Below are positions 589 to 44,903 of a stretch of DNA of 44,903 nt, piece after piece. The notes beneath the pieces were generated by a model. It had not been told where the DNA came from, did not search any database, and worked only from the letters and a program-made list of their open reading frames with translations. Source of the stretch: a virus (Duplodnaviria; Heunggongvirae; Uroviricota; Caudoviricetes); IMG/VR virus record IMGVR_UViG_2718217885_000015, one strand, 5' to 3'. The position numbers and the translations under genes were made by a program. The first letter of the stretch is position 1. The number at the start of each line of letters is the position of its first letter.

Positions 589-3500
589 TACTCAATGCGT
601 ACAAAAAGACCGATAAAGCCACGCTGAGTACCATAATTGTTACCCAGGCCCGAAAGCGCCGTGTAACGACCGGGGAAGTTGTATTCACCGGCACCGCCAA
701 TCACAACCTGCGGTGAGGATGCGTATGTCCCTGTATCACTAACCTGTGCACTCATGGCCAGAGGACCAAGACGGGAACCCGGCACAGTATCACCGAGTCC
801 CAGAGAAGCATTTTCACCAAAACTTTCTCCCTGATATACCGCCATAATCGGCACACCGACGGCCGGGTATTGGTAATATGAGAACGGACCATTACCGGCG
901 GTTGAGGACATCAGATATGCCAGGGAGTTGCCGTCATACACAATAAGGCTTGATGTTGCATTCCAGCTGTTACCACTGTAGCGATAACGCATACAATGTA
1001 TGCTGTGCTCATCCTCGTAATACTGGTTGTAGTACAGCAGCGTTTTGAATTTACGCGCTGAGTCTGAACCATCGTTATCAGAGGGTGACCACATCACATC
1101 AATGATACCGTTAAATTTCGTGGTGCCCACCAGCAGCGTGGAGGAGTCCGCAATACTGACCGCATAACGCCCCGGGGTGACTGTCTGCAGCCATATAACG
1201 AAATCAGCCTGTCCGTTAAATGACAGAGCTTCGGCGCTGGTGAATGCCTGTCCAAACCCATACATCCCGGACAGGGCCAGCCTGCCCGGTGTGCGGTCAC
1301 GGATATCACTCTGGGGTTCCATCGTCGCAGCCGCGCTCAGCTCAAGCTCCGTGCGCATGGCTTCAGCCGTGTCATGCGCCAGCAATGCGCGGCCCTTCTC
1401 TGACAGCAGAGACAGTGAGGCATTCCCGTCCGTATTGAAGTACAGAAGATTATCTGCCCGTTGCGTCAGTGCGCTGATTGCCGTTAAGACGTCATTAAGC
1501 GGTTGTTTGCCTGCCAGCGCGTTTGTGATTGTCGTCGCAAAGTTCGGGTCATTGCCCAGCGCCGCTGCCAGCTCGTTCAGGGTGTCCAGAACTTCCGGCG
1601 ATGAGCCAACCAGCGCAGCAAGCAGTTTGCGCACAAACGCTGCGTTCGCTGCTTCCAGACCGGCGGCATCATCCGGTGGGGTTGGGGTGGTTGGGGTGCC
1701 GGTGAAGGCCGGGCTGTCCAGTGGCGCTTTTGTTTTCGTCTCGTCCATGACGGTTTTGACAGCCTTTGGCGTGGCAGCCAGTTCCTCGCTGTCGTTGTCC
1801 GTATCACTACACAGTTGCACCAGACCTTTTTCTGTCGTGGAGGCATTTGTTGCATTCAGGTCATCAACTATCTGCTGCGCCTCATCCCTGTACTGTTTCG
1901 CTTCCTGCGCATTGTCTGCACCTGCATCCTGGCTGGCTTTAGCCTGTCGGGCGTATTCAGCGGCGCTGTTTTCATGCCCGAGTGCAGCATTTGCTGCATT
2001 TTCCGCGCTGGTTGCAGCTGATGATGCGGCATTATGATAAAGGCGGGCACGTTCGGCGGCATCGACTGATTCGTCCCGCGCTGTGCCTGATGACTGTGCG
2101 CTGTTTTCTGTCTCCCCGATTTTTTGGGTCACTTCAGCAATATCACTCTCTATCTGCTGATTGATCTCATCCTCCAGTTGCTCAACTTCACTGCGCAATG
2201 CCGAGGCATTAATACGATCGTTCAGCTCCTGCCCCAGCAGGGTGCTGTTTATTTTCCCTTCAAAAAAATTGAGATACACCTCAGCATCGTTACCCGGCTG
2301 GCCAACAGCCTCCACAAATGCCGATTTGCCGACGGTATTCACACTGCGAACGTAAAAATAATAATTATTGCCCGGCTCAATATCCGGTCCGGAGGCTATC
2401 CAGTACAGCGCCGTACCAAGATAGCGGGCTGTGGTTTCAACCTGCCTGATATCGATAATCCGCTTTTCCGATAACCAGAACTCAAACTGTACCGTCGGGT
2501 CATATACAGCCAGTTTCGGGACCGCCGTTATCTGAAAATACCCCGGTATCAGTTCAATAGTGACAGGCGCTGCCGGTGCCGCAATCCGGAACGATACCGA
2601 CGCCGGATCACCCTGCTGCCCCCGGGCATTTACCGCCCGGACCGTCAGCATATAACGCCCCAGCGCCAGTTGTCTGAAGCGGTATGTGGTTTCCGTCGTC
2701 CGGGCTGTGCTGACCAGCCGCTCACTGCCGTCGTCCGCTGCCACGGTCAGGCGAAGCATGAAGCTCACGCCCTTCACCACCTTCGGCGTGTCCCAGCGGG
2801 CCAGTACCTGATACTCCCCGCTGTCTGCGGTGACTTCGGCGGTAAGGTGCTGCACCGCTGGCGGTGTGACACCATTCACCGTGCCGCTCTGGTCGCCGTC
2901 AAAGTGCGCCCCGTTATCCACGATGGCTTCTTTTTCCGGTACATGCTGCACGGCAGTGATGGCATACGTGCCGTCGTCGTTCTCACGGATACTCACGCAG
3001 CGGAACAGGCGCTGGCGCAGCGTCGGCAGCTTCAGCCCCCACACGCTGTATTCGGCAACGCCGTCAGGAACACGGCTCACTTTCACCTTCATGCCGTCGG
3101 TGACGGACTGAACCTCCACGCTGACCGGATTGCCATTTCCGTCAACCAGGCTTATCAGCGTGGTGCCGGAGGATGGCAGCGTGATTTCACGGTCGAGCGT
3201 CAGCGTCCGGGTCTGGCTGTTCACCGCCAGCACACGACCACCGGTGCTGATACCGGCATAGTCATCATCACAGATTTCAATAACATCGCCCGGTACATGG
3301 CGAAGCCCTTCGGCACCCACGCTGAAGTCCACGGTCTGCGTTTCCAGCAGTTCCGTTTTAATCAGCCACAGCCCGGCGCGGTGCGCCTGCCCCCGGCTGG
3401 TACAGCCAAAGGCATCCATCTTCGTGACGTTACGACCGTAACGGGCAATGGCCTGCGTGTCCTCCACAAGCTCTGTTGCCGTCTCCCAGCCGTTGTCCGG

Positions 3501-4715
3501 GTCAATCCAGTTCACCTCAACGGCATTATGGCGGTCCTTCAGGGCGCTGAAGCTGTAGCGGAACGGCGCGCCATCATCCGGCATCACCACATTACTGCGG
3601 TTATAGGTCCACACCTTATCTGATGGTCGGTCCTGCACGAACGTCAGCGTCTGCCCGTTCCATACCGGCATACAGCGCATCGCCGAGCAGAAATCACTGA
3701 GCACATCCCACGCCTTGCGCTGTGTGGTCAGGTACGCATTACAGGTGATGCGCGGCTCCGTGCCGCCAAAACCGTCCGGCACCGACTGATCGCAATGCTG
3801 GCCGATGACATACAGCGCCCATTTGTCCACATCCGCCGCACCAAGACGTTTCCCCATGCCGTAGCGCGGATGGGTCAGCATATCCCACAGACACCAGGCC
3901 GGGTTGTTGCTGTATGCCGGCTTAAACGTTCCGTCCCAGATACCGCTGTATTGCCGCGTCTGCGGGTTATAGTTCGACGGCACCTGCAGAATGCGCCCGC
4001 GCAGATGATAATTACGGCTCACCTGCTGGCTGCCGAACTGCTCCGAATCCACCTGCACGCCGACCAGTGCCGTGTTCGGGTAGCACTGTTTCACATCGAT
4101 GATTTCAGTGTATGACGACCAGAGCGTTTTGTTCTGCAGCTGGTCTGTGGTGCTGTCCGGCGTCATCCTGCGCATCCGTATATTGAACGGGCGCGGCGGC
4201 AGGTTACCCACCACCACCGAGGCCAGATACTGCGAGGTGGTTTTGCCCTTAATGGTGATGTCTTTTTCCGTCACCCAGCCACCATTACGCTGGATCTGAA
4301 CCAGCAGGCGGACTTCCGACGGATTCCGGTCCCCCTTTGAGGTGGTTTCCACCAGTGCCTGCACACCGAAGGTAAAGCGCAGACGGTCAATGTTTGCAGA
4401 TGTGATGGTCCGGGTGATCGGCGTGTCGTATTTCACTTCCGTACCCAGCACCGTCTCGGAACCGGAGGATTCAAATCCCTCCGGCGGTGCCTGCTCCTGC
4501 TCACCTGCCCGGAACACGACCGTGACACCGGAGATGTTGGTATTCCCCTCAGTGTCCAGCACCGGCGTACTGTTCAGCAGCACGCTTTTTAATCCATCCA
4601 CCGGACCTTCAATCGGCCCTTCGCTGATGGCATCAATCACACTCAGTAACTGCGTGGACTTCAGGTTGTCCTTCGCTTCGCGCGGGGTATGCCCCTTACT
4701 GCTGCCTTTACCCAT
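588..4715 (-). CDS. J: Host specificity / central tail fibre protein J, with a side-tail-fibre-like C-terminal region
   Basis: 1375 aa; the first ~800 residues align with lambda J as I recall it (e.g. [21 protein letters not shown]); the C-terminal ~550 aa carry a conserved tail-fibre motif (TEKGLVQL...AATPKAVK...[13 protein letters not shown]) and a Gly/Tyr-rich distal region instead of the lambda J C-terminus. Confidence 0.9.
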
Positions 4716-39308: not shown

Positions 39309-39435
39309 TTTCATTACTGCAAATGCCCCTGCGGGGGCATTTATGGAAACGTAATTAACTCAATAATCGCCTGAAGGCGAGGGTTTTCTTTAACCAAAAT
39401 TCAGAGCGGTGCAGCGCATATACGTGGAGAACAAA

Positions 39436-39972
39436 ATGTCATTTATTAAAACTTTTTCCGGGAAGCATTTTTATTATGACAAGATAAATAAAGACGACAT
39501 CGTGATTAACGATATCGCGGTTTCCCTTTCAAATATCTGCCGCTTTGCCGGTCATCTTTCTCACTTCTACAGTGTCGCCCAACATGCGGTGCTTTGCAGC
39601 CAGCTGGTGCCGCAGGAATTTGCTTTTGAAGCGTTAATGCATGATGCAACAGAAGCGTATTGCCAGGACATTCCCGCACCACTGAAACGCCTTCTTCCTG
39701 ACTATAAACGGATGGAAGAAAAAATAGACGCCGTAATCCGTGAGAAATACGGGTTACCCCCAGTTATGAGTACACCCGTGAAATATGCCGATCTCATCAT
39801 GCTGGCAACCGAACGCCGCGATCTCGGGCTTGATGATGGCTCTTTCTGGCCTGTACTGGAAGGCATCCCGGCAACAGAGATGTTCAACGTGATTCCACTG
39901 GCACCGGGCCATGCCTACGGGATGTTTATGGAACGCTTCAACGAGTTATCGGAATTACGCAAATGTGCATAA
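39436..39972 (+). CDS. HD-domain phosphohydrolase (YfdR-like 5'-deoxynucleotidase)
   Basis: 178 aa from MSFIKTF (GGAGA ribosome-binding site); HD-type metal-binding residues (H...HD...D) in FAGHLSHFYSVAQHAVLCS...MHDATEAY. Confidence 0.7.
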   Translation: MSFIKTFSGKHFYYDKINKDDIVINDIAVSLSNICRFAGHLSHFYSVAQHAVLCSQLVPQEFAFEALMHDATEAYCQDIPAPLKRLLPDYKRMEEKIDAVIREKYGLPPVMSTPVKYADLIMLATERRDLGLDDGSFWPVLEGIPATEMFNVIPLAPGHAYGMFMERFNELSELRKCA

Positions 39973-40841
39973 CTCATGTAGTTAGTTTTTCTGGCGGGAG
40001 AACATCCGCATATCTTGTTCACCTGATGGAAGAACAAAGAAAGGCTGGCAATAACGTCTGCTACATCTTTATGGATACCGGTTGCGAACATCCGCTGACA
40101 TACCGCTTTATCCGGGAGGTTGTGAAGTTCTGGGACATACCACTAACTGTGTTACAGGTCGATATAAATCCTGAGCTTGGGCAGCCAAATGGTTATACAG
40201 AATGGGAGCCAAAGGATATTCAGACACGAATGCCGGTGCTTAAACCGTTTATGGACATGGTTAAAAAGTACGGTACGCCATACATCGGCGGCGCGTTCTG
40301 TACTGACAGGCTAAAACTCATCCCTTTCACGAAATACTGCGATAACCATTTCGGGCGAGGTAATTACATCACATGGCTGGGTATTCGTGCAGACGAACCC
40401 CGTAGGCTGAAACCGAAATCGGGCGTCCGGTATCTTGCCGAGCTGTCAGATTTTGATAAGTCGGATGTTATCCGGTGGTGGCGAAAACAACCTTTTGATT
40501 TGCAAATCCCGGAGCATCTCGGGAACTGTGTTTTCTGCATCAAAAAGTCAACGCAAAAGCTGGGGCTTGCATGTAAAGACGAACCAGGTCTGATGCGAGT
40601 TTTTAATGAGCTGGTTACAGGCAAACACGTCAGGGATGGTCATCGCAGAACAGGTAAAGACATTATGTACCGTGGTCACCTGACGCTTGACGGAATTGCC
40701 AGAATGTCTGCCAACAGCGACTACAGAAATTTGTATCAGGCGATGGTACAGGACAGGCGATTCGATACCGGCTCGTGTTCAGAGTCATGTGAAATCTGGG
40801 GTGATCAATTGGAATTGGAATTCGAAGAGGTAGGGGTATGA
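39963..40841 (+). CDS. PAPS-reductase-family (PP-loop ATP pyrophosphatase) protein
   Basis: 292 aa; N-terminal PP-loop VSFSGGRTS; C-terminal Cys cluster (CVFCIKKS...CSESC); translationally coupled to the next ORF (ATGA overlap). Confidence 0.75.
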   Translation: MCITHVVSFSGGRTSAYLVHLMEEQRKAGNNVCYIFMDTGCEHPLTYRFIREVVKFWDIPLTVLQVDINPELGQPNGYTEWEPKDIQTRMPVLKPFMDMVKKYGTPYIGGAFCTDRLKLIPFTKYCDNHFGRGNYITWLGIRADEPRRLKPKSGVRYLAELSDFDKSDVIRWWRKQPFDLQIPEHLGNCVFCIKKSTQKLGLACKDEPGLMRVFNELVTGKHVRDGHRRTGKDIMYRGHLTLDGIARMSANSDYRNLYQAMVQDRRFDTGSCSESCEIWGDQLELEFEEVGV

Positions 40842-41185
40842 CAACCGAAATTAACTACCATGCACTGCTTGAGCGCGCACGGAATAAAGTGCAGAGCATT
40901 GAGTTCGCCTTAACACAGAGTGCATTCGCTGAGATTCGCGCTGAGCTTGAAAATGATTTAGAACTGGCACGGATTGCACTGGCATCTCTGGAAGTTGAGC
41001 CAGATGAACGCGCAGCCTATGAATTATTTATGGAAAAGCGTTTCGGTAAAACAGTCGATCGTCGGAGAGCAAAAAACGGTGATAACGAGTACATGGCGTG
41101 GGATATGGCTCTCGGCTGGGTCGTCTGGCAACAACGCGCTGGCATGAGTCTTTCAACTGCACAACCACAGGAGGGTCAACAATGA
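40838..41185 (+). CDS. Hypothetical early-left protein
   Basis: 115-aa ORF coupled to the upstream gene; no recognised domain. Confidence 0.5.
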   Translation: MTTEINYHALLERARNKVQSIEFALTQSAFAEIRAELENDLELARIALASLEVEPDERAAYELFMEKRFGKTVDRRRAKNGDNEYMAWDMALGWVVWQQRAGMSLSTAQPQEGQQ

Positions 41186-41376
41186 ACAACTTAATGACAA
41201 CAAAACAAGTCGCCGAATTCTGTGGCGTTTCAATATCGACGGTGCTTCGCTGGAACAGCGTAAACCGGAGAACTGGCCAGAAGTACAGGCCTGATTTTCC
41301 AGATCCTGATATTAAATCATGCCCAAATAAATGGGCGTCACGCAAGATTTACAGGTTTGCAGGAGTTATTGAATGA
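41182..41376 (+). CDS. AlpA/Xis-type excisionase or regulator (HTH)
   Basis: 64 aa from MNNLMTTKQVAEFCGVSISTVLRW, with an AGGAGG ribosome-binding site; typical partner of P4-type integrases. Confidence 0.7.
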   Translation: MNNLMTTKQVAEFCGVSISTVLRWNSVNRRTGQKYRPDFPDPDIKSCPNKWASRKIYRFAGVIE

Positions 41377-41720
41377 CGTATGTGAACAGACACGTCTATG
41401 GCACGGTAAGCGTCTGTCTGAGCGATACAGGCACGGACGTTGCTATCCACAAGCATTAATTATCAGGAAACGGGGACCGCTCCCCAAGCATGATGTATTG
41501 AAACGAAGACATTTACACAATGATAGAAAAAATACTAAAATAATGATTCAACTCAAAGAGTTGATGTACATAAAATGCCTCACCAGCCTAGGTGAACATT
41601 TTCATGGGTGGGGAAAAACATGATGTGGACCACACTTCCCCCTCTAAAAAGAGGGGAAAGAGTATGGTTTTGTTGTACACTAAAGGCCATATGGTTTTTT
41701 ATTATGTTTGGATAAGATAA

Positions 41721-41906
41721 ATGAATGTAATAGCATTTGATGAAATAGAATCTAGCATAGCCGCCAATGATCAGGTTGATTCTATCTGCATTGAATTAAC
41801 AACATTTAATCAAGATAATGTCATTTCATTTGAAAGTAAAAAGAAAAATAAAGAAATTCTTGATGCATTTTTTGAAATAATAAATACTGATATAGTTTTC
41901 GACTAG
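41721..41906 (+). CDS. Small acidic ORF upstream of the deaminase gene (may instead be part of a non-coding RNA)
   Basis: 61-aa ORF, AT-rich, weak ribosome-binding site, 10 nt upstream of the 531-aa gene; a 7-bp hairpin CCCCTCT/AGAGGGG lies at 41639-41656 upstream. Confidence 0.3.
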   Translation: MNVIAFDEIESSIAANDQVDSICIELTTFNQDNVISFESKKKNKEILDAFFEIINTDIVFD

Positions 41907-41916
41907 GTAATTAGCA

Positions 41917-43512
41917 ATGGCTGAAGCAGCAAAAAAAACTCCACAAAAGCTGAATGAAAAAAAAGGCTCAACATCGGCATCATCACTTGAGATTGTGAAT
42001 TCACGACAATCAAAAGATATTTATCTTGGATTGTGTGGATATGTTGGATGTGGCATGAGAACGATAAACAAAATTATCGAAGAGATATCCAAAGAATGGG
42101 GGTATAATGTTGTACACATCCGCATAAGTGCGCTTATGGAAAACCCATTATATTTTGAGCCAGCAGCACTGAAGGTATCCGAAAGCACACAAGTTAATAG
42201 ACATTTAAAACTCCAGGATATTGCCAATAAACTTCGTAAACATTACAAAAAAAATGAGTTGCTTGCAGAAGCTGCTATTGCAGCAATCGCAGCAGAGAAA
42301 AATAATATTGATTATAATAATGATGAATATAAAGGTACTGTCTTCATCATTGATCAATTCAAAAGGCCGGAAGAAATAGAGTTATTCAGAGTTATATATC
42401 AGCATAATTTCTATTTGTTAGGAGTTTTGCGCGATTTAGATTACCGAATTCCGAATCTCATTGATGACGAATCGACAAAGAACGACCTTCATTTAATTAT
42501 CAATATTGATAATAAATCCTCTGATCCGTATGGACAAAGAACCGGGGAGACCATTCTTGATTCAGATTTTTTTATTAAAAATAACTTCAGCCAAAAAAGT
42601 GAATTAAAGAAGAAGATTGATCGGTTTTTCGGTCTTATTCATGGCAAAAATGGTTTAACACCAACTTTTAACGAGAAAGGTATGTATGCTGCCTTTTCAA
42701 CATCATTACAATCAGCTTGTTTATCACGTCAAGTAGGGGCTGCACTGTTTGATGATGAAGGGAATTTGCTTGCCGTGGGTAAGAACGACGTACCTAAAGC
42801 TGGTGGCGGGTTGTATAGCAGTGATGATTTTGATAACGATCATCGATGCGTTCACAAAAGTGGTAAGTGTTATAATGATGCAAACAAGCTAAAAATTAAA
42901 GACCGTATAAAAAGCATATTATCAACCGAAGTAAGAACTGTATTAGGTATTTCCGCAGGACAAACTGTTGCCGATATTAATATAACACGACTTCTAAACA
43001 AATTAGATAATATTGCAGAAGGCATTTACAAAGACAGCAAAATATCAAGTGTAATGGAGTACTCCAGATCAATTCATGCTGAAATGGACGTCATTACATC
43101 AATGGCTAGAAAACAAAACGGCGATACTAAAGATAAAATTCTTTTTACGACAACCTATCCCTGCCACAACTGTGCAAGGCATATTGTCGCAGCTGGAATA
43201 AAAAAAGTAGTATATATAGAGCCATTTGATAAAAGCCTTGCTCTTGATCTGCATAATGATGCAATAACAAAGAACGAAGAATCTTCCAAAGTAATATTTT
43301 GTGATTTTGAGGGGGTATCACCCCGCCGCTACCATAAATTTTTTAGACCAACGGATGAACGTAAAGATGATAAAACAGGGGCTGCAAATAAATTTAATGC
43401 TCGCTACAAAAATCATATAGATGTTCAATATCTTGATGATTATAGAAAGTATGAGACTGTTGTAGCTAAGAAATTTATAAACGAGATTGCTAAACCAGAG
43501 TCTCAGCCATAA
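41917..43512 (+). CDS. Two-domain deoxycytidylate/dCTP deaminase-like protein (AvcD/DcdV-like): N-terminal kinase-like region plus C-terminal CMP/dCMP deaminase domain
   Basis: 531 aa; C-terminal zinc-binding deaminase signature HAEMDVI...(26 aa)...PCHNCARHIVAAGIKKVVYIEP, preceded by ACLSRQVGAALFDDEGNLLAVGKND; N-terminal glycine-rich GLCGYVGCGMRT and Walker-B-like VFIIDQF; markedly AT-rich against the flanking phage DNA. Confidence 0.7.
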   Translation: MAEAAKKTPQKLNEKKGSTSASSLEIVNSRQSKDIYLGLCGYVGCGMRTINKIIEEISKEWGYNVVHIRISALMENPLYFEPAALKVSESTQVNRHLKLQDIANKLRKHYKKNELLAEAAIAAIAAEKNNIDYNNDEYKGTVFIIDQFKRPEEIELFRVIYQHNFYLLGVLRDLDYRIPNLIDDESTKNDLHLIINIDNKSSDPYGQRTGETILDSDFFIKNNFSQKSELKKKIDRFFGLIHGKNGLTPTFNEKGMYAAFSTSLQSACLSRQVGAALFDDEGNLLAVGKNDVPKAGGGLYSSDDFDNDHRCVHKSGKCYNDANKLKIKDRIKSILSTEVRTVLGISAGQTVADINITRLLNKLDNIAEGIYKDSKISSVMEYSRSIHAEMDVITSMARKQNGDTKDKILFTTTYPCHNCARHIVAAGIKKVVYIEPFDKSLALDLHNDAITKNEESSKVIFCDFEGVSPRRYHKFFRPTDERKDDKTGAANKFNARYKNHIDVQYLDDYRKYETVVAKKFINEIAKPESQP

Positions 43513-43518
43513 CTGTTT

Positions 43519-43557
43519 CCACTCCTTATTTCTGTAAGGATAAGGAGTGGTGTTTTT
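43519..43557. terminator. Bidirectional terminator between the convergent deaminase and integrase genes
   Basis: Perfect 11-bp stem CCACTCCTTAT/ATAAGGAGTGG followed by TGTTTTT. Confidence 0.6.
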
Positions 43558-43664
43558 ATAAGTATAATGACCGTCTCTTCATAAATCGGCAAATCGAAAT
43601 ATCAGCAACCAGTTAATTATAAGCCAAGAATCATTACTATTTTCTTACTCTGTATGTCTATTCA

Positions 43665-44903
43665 TTATTCAATAGGCTGTCTGTTGGAACCTAAATTAGT
43701 GTAAGTAAGAATCGAATCAACCCTATCCCACCATGCCTGATAGGCTTTACGCTGTTCTTCTAGATAATCGCTCTTATCATAAACTTGCCATACCCCTGGC
43801 AGTTTATGACCGAGCATTATTTCAGCAATATGAGGCGCAGTAAGATCAGAAAAGTTTGTTCGTGCTGTTCGTCTCAAATCATGAAGAGACCAATGAGGAA
43901 ATTGATACCCCAAACGCCGCCATGCGTACTGCATTAAATTGTAAGGCAGCGACTGCAATGATGTCCGACCAACTGGCTCCTTGCTTCCTTCCTTGGTAAA
44001 AAGCATATCGGAACCGTTGTTCATAGAGATAACGTATTTTATAAGCTCTTCAACCGGTTCAATAATGGGGCGCTTTAGCGGTTCGCCTGTTATATCACCT
44101 GTCTTATGTCGTTCTGGCGGTACAGTCCATACCTTATTAATGAAATCAAAATCATCCATCCTGGCAGTAATCAGCTCTGAACTACGACAGCCGAAATGCA
44201 GCAATAGTTTAATGAAGGCCCGGTATTTGGGAACCATTCGAGAACCATCGATCGCAGCATAAAGGATTTTAATTTCATCGTGTGTCAGAAACCGTTTCTT
44301 CTGACCTTTACGGATATCCATATCTTTACCCGTGATATCCGACAGAGGGCGAGTTTCAATGAGCTTTCTCTTATACGCCCAGACATGGGCCTGCTTTGCG
44401 TTAATTAGCAATCGGTCTGCTATTGCTGGAGTCTTAGTGCTAAGAGGCTCCAGGACCTCTAACCAATCATGCAATGTAGCTACATCGTGAGGGATAATCC
44501 CGATTTTAGAGAACAGGTGCAGTTCAAATGAGCGGAGTATCTGCTCAGAACCTTTTTTATTTTTTACACAATATGCGTCATACCAGGCACGGATCACAGA
44601 CTCCACCGTCATGGCTTCAGTAGCTTTGCGTTTTTCTGCCTGCTTGACCAATCGTGGATTGCGGTTTGACTCGAGTTCACCACGAAGACGGATAACTTCT
44701 TCTCTGGCCTCTTTTAGTCCAGTTGCCGGGTAAGTTCCGATATCAAGACGCTCACCTTTCCCTGCCCATTGATAACGATATTGGAACACTACGCGACCTT
44801 TCGGTGATACTCTGACAGACAGACCATCCCGATCTGATTTAACCAAAACCTTATCACGTTCCTTTCCAACGACTGAACGCAACCACGCATCAGAAAGCGC
44901 CAT
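43665..44903 (-). CDS. int: P4-type tyrosine integrase
   Basis: 412 aa; N-terminal MALSDAWLRS...GLSVRVSPKGRVVFQYRYQW typical of P4-family integrases; C-terminal catalytic region (HDLRRT...GH...Y); ATG at the last base of the window, so complete but with no upstream sequence. Confidence 0.9.
   Translation of the reverse strand: MALSDAWLRSVVGKERDKVLVKSDRDGLSVRVSPKGRVVFQYRYQWAGKGERLDIGTYPATGLKEAREEVIRLRGELESNRNPRLVKQAEKRKATEAMTVESVIRAWYDAYCVKNKKGSEQILRSFELHLFSKIGIIPHDVATLHDWLEVLEPLSTKTPAIADRLLINAKQAHVWAYKRKLIETRPLSDITGKDMDIRKGQKKRFLTHDEIKILYAAIDGSRMVPKYRAFIKLLLHFGCRSSELITARMDDFDFINKVWTVPPERHKTGDITGEPLKRPIIEPVEELIKYVISMNNGSDMLFTKEGSKEPVGRTSLQSLPYNLMQYAWRRLGYQFPHWSLHDLRRTARTNFSDLTAPHIAEIMLGHKLPGVWQVYDKSDYLEEQRKAYQAWWDRVDSILTYTNLGSNRQPIE

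Follow-up and report, generated by a model that had tools for sequence, protein, structure and literature searches.

A very probable AvcID-type anti-phage cassette between xis and int of a lambdoid prophage, with clear signs of coding selection in its small upstream ORF

We analyzed a 44,903-nt stretch of prophage DNA, hereafter called the window, at a locus bounded upstream by an excisionase gene, xis (true start about 41182, end 41376; phrog_1553, E=7e-35), and downstream by a convergent integrase gene, int (43665-44903; phrog_1, E=4e-73). This is the position between an excisionase-like gene and a convergent integrase given in the original prediction. The locus forms one unit on the plus strand: a leader, two genes (a 61-codon ORF and the gene for a 531-aa deaminase) and its own terminator. 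As predicted, the deaminase gene was lower in GC than the backbone, with a GC content of 0.354 (0.344 for the whole module) compared to 0.504 for the window. The cassette is a low-GC moron of a lambdoid prophage, and the location on a mobile element or in a defence island expected for AvcID systems takes here the form of the prophage xis-int junction. Homology with other carriers of this portable module starts at 41502, 41589 or 41640, the last being the point from which the E. kobei copy matches, and we place the cassette from about 41590/41640 to 43560. Since this homology starts only at these positions, the segment from 41400 to about 41600 is phage backbone outside the cassette, and the earlier left limit at 41400 had to be moved. 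In a megablast search of a phage collection, the cassette was absent from deposited phages, the sole match being a 79-nt end of xis. A 5'-deoxynucleotidase (YfdR) is encoded nearby in the same prophage.

The larger gene (41917-43512) encodes an avcD-type anti-phage dCTP/dCMP deaminase of 531 aa. Profile searches and structure prediction had been suggested as checks of this assignment, and both agreed with it. The protein matched the NCBIfam equivalog NF041025 with 464.5 bits (cutoff 400) over model positions 2-437 of 437, the PADLOC dCTPase model PDLC02373 with E=3.8e-164, and Pfam PF00383, and the AF2 model (pLDDT 85.4) displayed a kinase-like plus deaminase architecture. In RefSeq, 100% identical DNA carries the label 'anti-phage dCTP deaminase' (product WP_047085127.1); the AvcD-type gene is already known, and already named so, in public E. 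coli genomes. A sequence search of the PDB returned solved relatives for the deaminase domain only and did not find a full-length AvcD structure. Taken together, the profile matches, the annotation and the modelled architecture place the protein in the experimentally defined AvcD/DcdV family, as first proposed, and judged from the alignments its catalytic and family-specific residues are all intact.

The C-terminal part of the deaminase (about aa 250-480, 42664..43356) is a zinc-dependent domain of the dCMP-deaminase (CDA) fold. The HAE...PCxxC motif and the downstream GIKKVVY noted at the outset are present as H387-A-E389 (encoded at 43075-43083), P415-C-H-N-C419 (43159-43173) and G427-IKKVVY, and all three were invariant in 38 homologues. 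The allosteric dCTP/dTTP motif of metabolic enzymes, G[YW]NG, is lost and reads G288-K-N290-D291, where G288, N290 and D291 are invariant among the aligned homologues. The glycine-rich, kinase-like N-terminal region that had been predicted corresponds in the AF2 model to an NMP-kinase-like P-loop domain (about aa 30-245, 42004..42651), with a lysine-less, glycine-rich Walker-A-like motif, G38-LCGYVGCGMRT-49 (G38-T49, 42028-42063), and a Walker-B-like pair, D146-Q147. C40, G41, G44 and the D146-Q147 pair are invariant in the aligned homologues. The missing canonical lysine in GCGMRT had been pointed out, with the suggestion of a divergent or regulatory kinase fold; its absence is real and no peculiarity of this copy, since the P-loop lysine was found in none of the 22 aligned homologues. 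Mutants in this motif are inactive in both V. cholerae (S52K) and E. coli AW1.7 (G29A/C30A), and because these changes abolished activity, the N-terminal domain, kinase-like by fold, would be required for activity here as well.

Upstream of the two genes, the leader contains a hairpin (41635..41660; sequence and MFE fold) with a 7-bp stem, in which CCCCTCT (41639-41645) pairs with AGAGGGG (41650-41656) around an AAAA loop. Budvicia, Morganella and E. kobei retain altered forms of it, and it roughly marks the left edge of the portable module. The hairpin had been considered as a possible cognate RNA; it does exist, at about 41639-41656, but it lies in the leader, outside the avcI-equivalent segment. 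Insulation or RNA stability are possible roles, and a role as inhibitor is unlikely. A conserved -10-like box, the GTTTTGTTGTACACT region (41669..41681), is a candidate for the cassette promoter, with invariant columns T-x-T-x-T-x-GTA-x-A-x-T in seven leader sequences. The candidate hexamer is TACACT (41676-41681), about 40 nt 5' of the small-ORF ATG, and reads TAAAAT, TAGAAT or TAAACT in relatives. Transcription is predicted to start near 41688. The scan for promoters also gave an alternative sigma-70-like match, TTTACA-18-TAAAAT (10/12, 41512..41541), which is weak evidence and whose sequence is common to the Budvicia copy only. Since the scan returned no more sites than in shuffled sequence, we based promoter assignments on conservation. 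At the 3' end, an intrinsic terminator (43519..43560) has a 13-bp stem and a 6-nt loop followed by TGTTTTTATA; with stem and T-run at 43519-43550, the unit has its own terminator, as had been claimed.

The small ORF (41721..41906), annotated as the hypothetical protein WP_040091656.1, occupies the avcI/difV position (phrog_9966) and is a candidate antitoxin locus, through its RNA, its protein or both. It is 186 nt long and ends 10 nt 5' of avcD, which corresponds to the same-strand element of ~150-220 nt that characterizes AvcID systems. The original prediction had called it a weak ORF. We found instead a conserved protein-coding frame, open in 10 of 10 diverged sequences with the same type of C-terminus (FD-type) at 24-37% GC, where the other frames had 3-14 stops; shuffles gave a probability of about 0.002-0.005 per sequence for an open frame by chance. 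Substitutions by codon position were 84/73/145 (p=3e-7), and pN/pS was 0.16-0.68. An SD-like GGAT (41710..41713) lies 8 nt 5' of the ATG, and a purine-rich element is present there in all aligned leaders. At the other end, the stop codon falls inside the deaminase SD, 10 nt before the deaminase ATG (UAGG, 41904..41907), in a translational-coupling arrangement: the ten aligned sequences retain 'GAT TAG G' (with GAC in the window), and the deaminase ATG follows after a gap of 7-12 nt. A small upstream coding gene, purifying selection and translational coupling to the toxin gene, as looked for in type II toxin-antitoxin (TA) systems, were therefore all found here. The alignments give clear signs that the ORF at the avcI position is under protein-coding selection, which is a new observation, and likewise that this clade's upstream element is at the same time a small-protein gene, translated, under selection and translationally coupled to the deaminase. 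The 61-aa protein itself gave no functional lead: Pfam, NCBIfam and PADLOC domains were not found in it, word-based and exhaustive protein searches returned a few representatives of unnamed "hypothetical proteins", and AF2 did not yield a confident fold, the quality of the model (pLDDT 52, pTM 0.27) being too low for fold searching.

We also searched the same region for RNA signals. The avcI-equivalent segment folded no better than shuffled sequence (z=+1.6), and neither a thermodynamic nor a covariation signal of structured RNA was found in 41690-41920 (RNAalifold consensus -3.3 kcal/mol). Because the validated AvcI regions of V. parahaemolyticus and ETEC were equally featureless, this test was not used against a role of the RNA. 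An Rfam scan of 41000-43700, with E up to 1, revealed no known sRNA family and gave two sub-threshold chance matches (isrC and S4 leader). Tandem repeats were not found in 41380-41930, nor was a terminator-like site between the small ORF and avcD, so that the two marks of type III (ToxIN-like) systems, repeats and a terminator before the toxin gene, were both missing. Overall, the pattern of constraint in the upstream element points, at the level of sequence, to a translated protein.

Small ORFs at this position were not restricted to the close relatives. An ORF with a shared NV[IV]x[FL]...A...[IV]L core was present in 42 of 80 distant loci, and its substitutions by codon position were 34/35/72 (p=5e-5). 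SD cores preceded 27 of the 42 ORFs with the other type of C-terminus (W-type) compared to 12.6% of background ATGs (p=8e-15), and these ORFs end 10-140 nt 5' of the deaminase. In the enterobacterial clade to which the window and ETEC p58 belong the tail is of the FD-type, and Vibrio, Pseudomonas, Shewanella and others have the W-type. The distant ORFs, those of the Vibrio systems included, are probably homologous to the FD-type ORF, a relation that direct comparison supports at no more than a suggestive level (hhalign P=3e-4, probability 40%). The small protein may combine an N-V-[IV]-x-[FL] core with a basic linker and, at its C-terminus, an amphipathic helix. We give even chances to the broader proposal that, across the AvcID family, the avcI locus encodes a conserved protein of ~55-65 aa that is translated and functionally important, whether as the actual inhibitor, as a co-acting one or by regulating AvcD.

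The closest relative with published tests is the AvcD/AvcI (DcdV/DifV) pair of ETEC H10407 (plasmid p58, NC_017723.1; ORF 2618-2803, deaminase 2816-4414), whose deaminase is 61% identical to that of the window over the full length. Both loci have the same layout, with a 61-codon same-strand ORF, a gap of 10-12 nt and a deaminase of about 531 aa, and both small ORFs share the FD-type C-terminus (...KE[IT][LI]xxFxxI[IL]xxxI[IV][FL]D*). The ETEC enzyme depletes dCTP and dCMP, causes filamentation, is neutralized by its own upstream region (61 codons) and protects against several coliphages. However, 39% of the deaminase residues differ, identity between the small ORFs is only about 26%, with a BLASTP match that is not significant (E=0.88), and the ETEC copy lies on a 5.8-kb mobilisable plasmid and not on a prophage. 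The inhibition is reported to be cognate-specific, and there is no cross-inhibition between the upstream elements of different clades. As for the upstream inhibitor foreseen in the prediction, the 186-nt ORF matches the inhibitory ETEC element in size, orientation and spacing, which fits a cognate-inhibitor site in this region, although the hairpin is an improbable form of it.

AvcD-AvcI of V. cholerae VSP-1 and AvcID of V. parahaemolyticus belong to the same family at 44-45% identity. Like the window protein, these deaminases have both domains, a P-loop without lysine, the DQ pair and the zinc motif, and a small same-strand ORF lies immediately 5'. Their published mechanism, loss of AvcI on transcription shut-off followed by depletion of the dC pool, is the one that we adopt below. 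By contrast, the Vibrio ORF is W-type (ending ...A.xLGW*) and its distance to the deaminase start is about 75 nt instead of 10 nt, the V. cholerae copy is found in the genomic island VSP-1 next to vspR and CBASS rather than in a prophage, and RNA sufficiency was demonstrated for the Vibrio systems only. [quoted passage not shown] The dCTP deaminase of E. coli AW1.7 (Tal et al. 2022), the source of the dCTP deaminase models of PADLOC and DefenseFinder, likewise has a kinase-like N-terminal and a zinc-deaminase C-terminal domain, both required for its defence, and a P-loop without lysine (GRTGSGCTT), and it depletes dCTP on infection. We considered it as the closest relative with published tests and rejected it, since its N-terminus and length (576 aa) differ; it belongs to a much more distant branch and is not among the best 120 homologues. 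Its published construct included only about 84 nt of upstream sequence, and hence no avcI-like ORF. The literature groups AvcID with ToxIN, a type III TA system, and both have an upstream labile RNA antitoxin and activation by transcription shut-off. Unlike ToxIN, the window locus lacks upstream repeats and an intergenic terminator, its toxin is not an RNase and its antitoxin segment is a selected protein-coding frame.

Our best explanation, which we hold with high confidence, is that the locus is an AvcID-type (DcdV/DifV, 'dCTP deaminase') anti-phage cassette on a lambdoid prophage. For the steps of the mechanism we draw on the literature about homologues with 44-61% identity, the nearest with experimental data being only 61% identical. 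In the uninfected cell, the deaminase would be made and kept inactive post-translationally by the short-lived product of the upstream element, reported to be AvcI RNA. An infecting phage that shuts off host transcription would let the inhibitor decay, in line with the activation described through loss of AvcI after transcription shut-off (PMC10511110). The freed enzyme would convert dCTP and dCMP to dUTP and dUMP, dCTP depletion having been published (bioRxiv 10.1101/2021.04.26.441389). The dC pool would then collapse and phage DNA replication would stall or give defective particles, and the prophage would so shield its host and itself from superinfecting phages. At the present locus, the inhibitor may be the RNA, the 61-aa protein or both.

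The same enzyme fold also occurs in metabolism, and an ordinary phage dCMP deaminase of the T4 Cd or chlorovirus bi-DCD type, which would feed prophage replication with dUMP/dTTP and not act in defence, would account for the best matches of the C-terminal domain, which are phage and viral enzymes, and for a 5'-deoxynucleotidase (YfdR) gene in the same prophage. We consider it highly improbable. The deaminase matches the defence-family equivalog over its full length, and its additional kinase-like domain is missing in metabolic dCMP deaminases (T4 Cd 1vq2, S. mutans 2hvv, chlorovirus bi-DCD 7fh4), which have housekeeping or phage-replication roles, no antitoxin and an intact dCTP/dTTP allosteric site. 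That site reads GKND here, and in V. cholerae DcdV the equivalent divergence, to GCND, accompanied the loss of dTTP inhibition. Moreover, the cassette travels apart from phage replication modules, onto plasmids and defence islands, and its int-xis moron position is one expressed from the lysogen.

A different question concerns the inhibitor of the AvcID-type cassette. In this clade, it is possible, though on the doubtful side, that the 61-aa protein, rather than an untranslated sRNA, is the inhibitor, as a type II-like antitoxin or an obligatory co-factor of the RNA. On this equally tentative scheme, a labile small protein would bind AvcD, and phage shut-off would end its synthesis, so that its loss would release the deaminase. 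The open frame in ten diverged FD-type sequences, the third-position excess and the pN/pS values, the SD-like elements with the stop overlapping the deaminase SD, and the probably homologous core in distant loci all argue for it; a low-confidence AF2 model would suit a peptide that folds only on its partner, and the published work on the FD-type (ETEC) element covered the cloned ORF region rather than a translation-dead version. Against it, DcdV was still inhibited in V. cholerae by constructs that lacked an RBS or carried TAA in place of ATG, and AvcI RNA is reported, in the part of PMC10511110 that cites Hsueh 2022, to associate with AvcD in a complex and to inhibit the enzyme in vitro. Because these Vibrio loci carry a W-type ORF too, coding selection alone does not make the protein the inhibitor, and the link between the FD and W types is itself only suggestive. 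Translation of the ORF purely as a cis device, a leader or coupling element that sets the level of deaminase translation or protects the RNA, with a peptide functionless in trans, seems unlikely to us. The short gap of 7-12 nt and the stop codon inside the SD would suit such a device, as would the observation in V. cholerae that avcI RNA is 20-60 times as abundant as avcD RNA, where production of the sRNA is unexplained. However, a pure coupling ORF need only stay open, yet the amino-acid sequence is conserved (pN/pS down to 0.16), with motifs common to very distant taxa, and W-type ORFs end 10-140 nt before the deaminase, which speaks against tight coupling as a general feature.

The AvcID-type cassette recurs intact in a prophage, conjugative elements, a small plasmid (p58) and defence islands, and close relatives adjoin GmrSD or a BamHI-type R-M gene. 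Insertions of IS1A and IS421 have broken the same cassette in certain E. coli strains, so activity is not to be assumed for every copy; the window copy is intact. As a defence gene it adds little, being a further prophage-borne copy of a characterized nucleotide-depletion system that standard pipelines already name, here with a lambdoid prophage using its xis-int junction to carry superinfection immunity. The AvcID literature leaves the production of AvcI, its active form and its cognate specificity unexplained, and a translated small ORF offers a concrete and cheap hypothesis. If the small-protein reading holds, the classification of the system would change and there would be a case for a second gene in defence-finder models. 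If true across the family, AvcID would no longer be a simple type III TA system, but one with a dual RNA/protein function or a type II-like one.

The 531-aa ORF at 41917-43512 (plus strand) had been predicted to encode an AvcD/DcdV-like defence deaminase, and this assignment was right. The protein matched the NCBIfam equivalog NF041025 "anti-phage dCTP deaminase" over the entire model (464.5 bits, cutoff 400 bits) and the PADLOC dCTPase model (E=3.8e-164), and Pfam detected the deaminase domain alone (PF00383, aa 252-434). Its motifs are H387-A-E389, P415-C-H-N-C419, G427-IKKVVY and a glycine-rich G38-LCGYVGCGMRT-49. At least 80% of 41300-43700 was present in 41 complete E. coli genomes in RefSeq; the four with 100% identity (GB089, 09-00049, RM9088 and OkiPb01715) all label the deaminase "anti-phage dCTP deaminase" (WP_047085127.1), and some RefSeq genomes also annotate the small ORF upstream, as the hypothetical protein WP_040091656.1. 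We found more than 5,600 homologues of the deaminase at E <1e-10, and sequence and structure comparisons with the PDB returned no solved structure of any full-length AvcD relative. The deaminase locus is an already known and already annotated system.

The glycine-rich motif GCGMRT lacks the Walker A lysine, and the suspicion that the motif might be degenerate was not borne out. In an alignment of 22 homologues (39-87% identity), C40, G41 and G44 were invariant, G46 nearly so, and the D146-Q147 pair was likewise invariant, while the lysine position was occupied by another, nearly always hydrophobic, residue in all 22. In V. cholerae DcdV, the S52K and D162A/Q163A mutants lost activity (DcdV/DifV preprint), and in the E. 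coli AW1.7 protein, whose P-loop reads GRTGSGCTT, G29A/C30A abolished both defence and dCTP depletion (bioRxiv 10.1101/2021.04.26.441389). Since homologues lack the lysine and mutants of these residues are inactive, the lysine-less P-loop is the normal, functionally required state of the family. The N-terminal kinase-like domain is thus required, and it may either transfer phosphate or only bind nucleotide.

Among the tested relatives, AvcD of ETEC H10407 (plasmid p58, NC_017723.1) is 61% identical to the window deaminase and the Vibrio AvcD proteins 44-45%, whereas the AW1.7 protein (576 aa) is much more distant, which places the window allele, by sequence, in the AvcD clade. ETEC AvcD, the nearest validated neighbour, depletes dC nucleotides, causes filamentation and defends against T3 and several SEC phages, and the region upstream of its own gene neutralises it. 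We consider it very probable that the cassette works as an AvcID-type system. In the lysogen, the small ORF and the deaminase would form a constitutively expressed operon, driven by a promoter within the conserved leader (candidate -10 at 41676-41681). As established in homologues, the deaminase would be held inactive by one or more labile products of the upstream element, this inhibitor would be lost when a phage shuts off transcription, and the conversion of dCTP/dCMP to dUTP/dUMP would make phage replication fail.

The features originally described around the gene (ORF, motifs, low GC, xis and int flanks, terminator, 61-codon ORF, hairpin) are all present in the sequence. The gene (35.4% GC) and the cassette (41640-43560; 34.4%) are poorer in GC than the window as a whole (50.4%) and than the adjacent early region, xis and int (44-47%). 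Upstream lies the excisionase gene (about 41182-41376; phrog_1553, E=7e-35), its start placed near 41182 because the match begins at residue 29; downstream are a terminator (43519-43550, 13-bp stem and T-run) and a convergent tyrosine integrase gene (43665-44903; phrog_1, E=4e-73). A hairpin (stem 41639-41645/41650-41656) precedes the small ORF. Homology with other carriers began at 41502 (Budvicia), 41589 (Morganella), 41640 (E. kobei) or 41719 (a metagenomic plasmid-like contig) and ended between 43484 and 43659. The predicted interval, 41400-43557, therefore contains a real cassette, but its initial ~200 bp are phage backbone. Two further mechanical ORFs between xis and the small ORF, 41357-41623 (88 aa) and 41592-41720 (42 aa), had no family match and no conservation past the closest relatives; they probably do not code and belong to the backbone or leader. 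In the backbone adjoining the left edge of the cassette, the minus strand carries two short hairpins that resemble terminators (41548-41564 and 41579-41596); they may be chance matches, or they might shield xis from antisense transcription.

Elsewhere, the unit of small ORF and deaminase occurred within conjugative-transfer regions, near a Rep3 replicon and on p58, and adjoined GmrSD or a BamHI-type R-M gene; this recurrence in varied settings shows the unit to be a mobile, self-contained cassette for defence. The window is lambdoid prophage sequence, in mosaic with Stx-converting phages; about half of 17000-41300 matches Stx2-converting lambdoid phages at 92-95% identity. The GB089 copy is integrated beside yjjG (yjjG-rimI-holD). 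In E. kobei (locus L083, 1141-4596) the cassette is on the far side of int, at the prophage end near icd, as opposed to between xis and int; capture has thus occurred independently at different prophage termini. Just 5' of xis lie genes for a YfdR-type 5'-deoxynucleotidase (39409-39972, phrog_318) and a PAPS-reductase-family protein (39963-40841, phrog_424), nucleotide-related accessory functions that could interact with a defence based on dNTP pools. We also observed disrupted copies. In several bovine E. coli from Okinawa, including NZ_AP042480.1 and NZ_AP042598.1, IS1A sits ~70 nt 5' of the small ORF (equivalent to about 41650) and IS421 cuts off the 3' end of the deaminase gene in the same cassettes (about 43380); truncated proteins of 365-520 aa are also numerous in the deaminase cluster. 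Inactivation of the locus seems to be frequent and may be a sign of fitness cost.

The upstream region had been proposed to hold a cognate inhibitor. According to the DcdV/DifV preprint, DifV is a 152-174-nt RNA that is co-transcribed with the deaminase gene and lies inside a small "hypothetical" ORF directly preceding that gene on the same strand, and analogous upstream ORFs of V. parahaemolyticus, P. mirabilis and ETEC each inhibit their cognate enzyme. The window ORF (41721-41906, plus strand, 186 nt) agrees with this proposal: it has 61 codons and a 10-nt gap, compared with 61 codons and 12 nt in ETEC, and by position it is the equivalent of the published element. It belongs to PHROGs family phrog_9966, of unknown function. 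We compared ten loci with ORFs of this type (ending in D, hereafter FD-type), whose deaminases are 61-90% identical to that of the window. These ORFs have 61-63 codons and share the C-terminus K-x-E-[IT]-[LI]-x-[AS]-F-x-x-I-[ILM]-x-x-x-I-x-[FL]-D. Although GC is only 24-37%, none of the ten sequences has a stop within the frame, whereas the remaining two frames hold 3-14; in shuffled sequence the probability of an open frame was 0.002-0.005. Five disjoint pairs differed at 84/73/145 sites in codon positions 1/2/3 (p=3e-7). pN/pS was 0.16-0.68, and 0.12-0.33 for the deaminase in the same pairs. One pair with 75% nucleotide identity had 80% amino acid identity in frame 0, but 50% and 45% when the frame was shifted. 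Ahead of the ATG is a purine run resembling an SD, and the stop belongs to a conserved motif, "GAT TAG G" (with GAC for GAT in the window), that also serves as deaminase SD. Judged by these patterns, the FD-type ORF is, unexpectedly, conserved as a protein.

Among 80 more distant loci, 67 had an ATG-initiated ORF of at least 40 codons ending no more than 150 nt from the deaminase start, a count that includes a few ordinary large neighbouring genes. In 42 of the 80, the small ORF ended in "[IL]L-x-x-A-x-x-L-x-W" (W-type), with N-[VI]-[VI]-x-[FL] and a basic linker ahead of this ending. Five disjoint pairs of these ORFs differed by codon position at 34/35/72 sites (p=4.6e-5; pN/pS 0.22-0.56), and an SD core stood before 27 of the 42, whereas only 12.6% of background ATGs had one (p=8e-15). 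W-type ORFs also occupy the avcI position in the V. parahaemolyticus locus (L090:1748-1924) and a vspR-adjacent V. cholerae locus (L091:1753-1923). The two types aligned in register with MAFFT, and hhalign gave P=3e-4 at a probability of only 40% (reversed control P=0.12), so homology is likely, not proven. AvcI is termed a non-coding RNA in the papers surveyed, up to a 2025 review, and Pfam has no family for the small ORF, every database copy being labelled "hypothetical protein". The W-type ORFs, their coding-type substitutions and the SD enrichment indicate that the published non-coding AvcI overlaps a small ORF conserved family-wide.

There is good evidence that RNA can inhibit AvcD: DcdV toxicity was still suppressed by V. 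cholerae constructs, expressed from Ptac, that had no RBS or had TAA in place of the ATG (DcdV/DifV preprint), and AvcI RNA is reported to complex with AvcD and inhibit it in vitro (PMC10511110, citing Hsueh 2022). The translation-dead constructs were of the V. cholerae element, not the ETEC or P. mirabilis elements, and inhibition by RNA leaves the conservation of frame, peptide sequence and SD unexplained. No RNA-structure signal was detected in the window segment (z=+1.6) or the FD-type alignment (-3.3 kcal/mol), nor in validated AvcI regions (z -1.1 to +0.6), and the consensus of the Vibrio-type alignment contained no base pairs. Unlike ToxIN, the window cassette has no tandem repeats near the small ORF (41380-41930) and no terminator between its two genes. 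AF2 modelled the 61-aa protein with low confidence (pLDDT 52), which would fit a partner-dependent peptide and proves nothing. We regard the functional importance of the peptide as evenly balanced, and a role for it as the inhibitor or as an essential component of the inhibitor in the window clade as possible though rather doubtful; that inhibitor may be RNA alone, protein or both.

Overall, the main finding is ordinary in that the defence gene was known and annotated beforehand. Only the conserved small protein encoded at the position of avcI might surprise a specialist, and it is directly testable by simple genetics.
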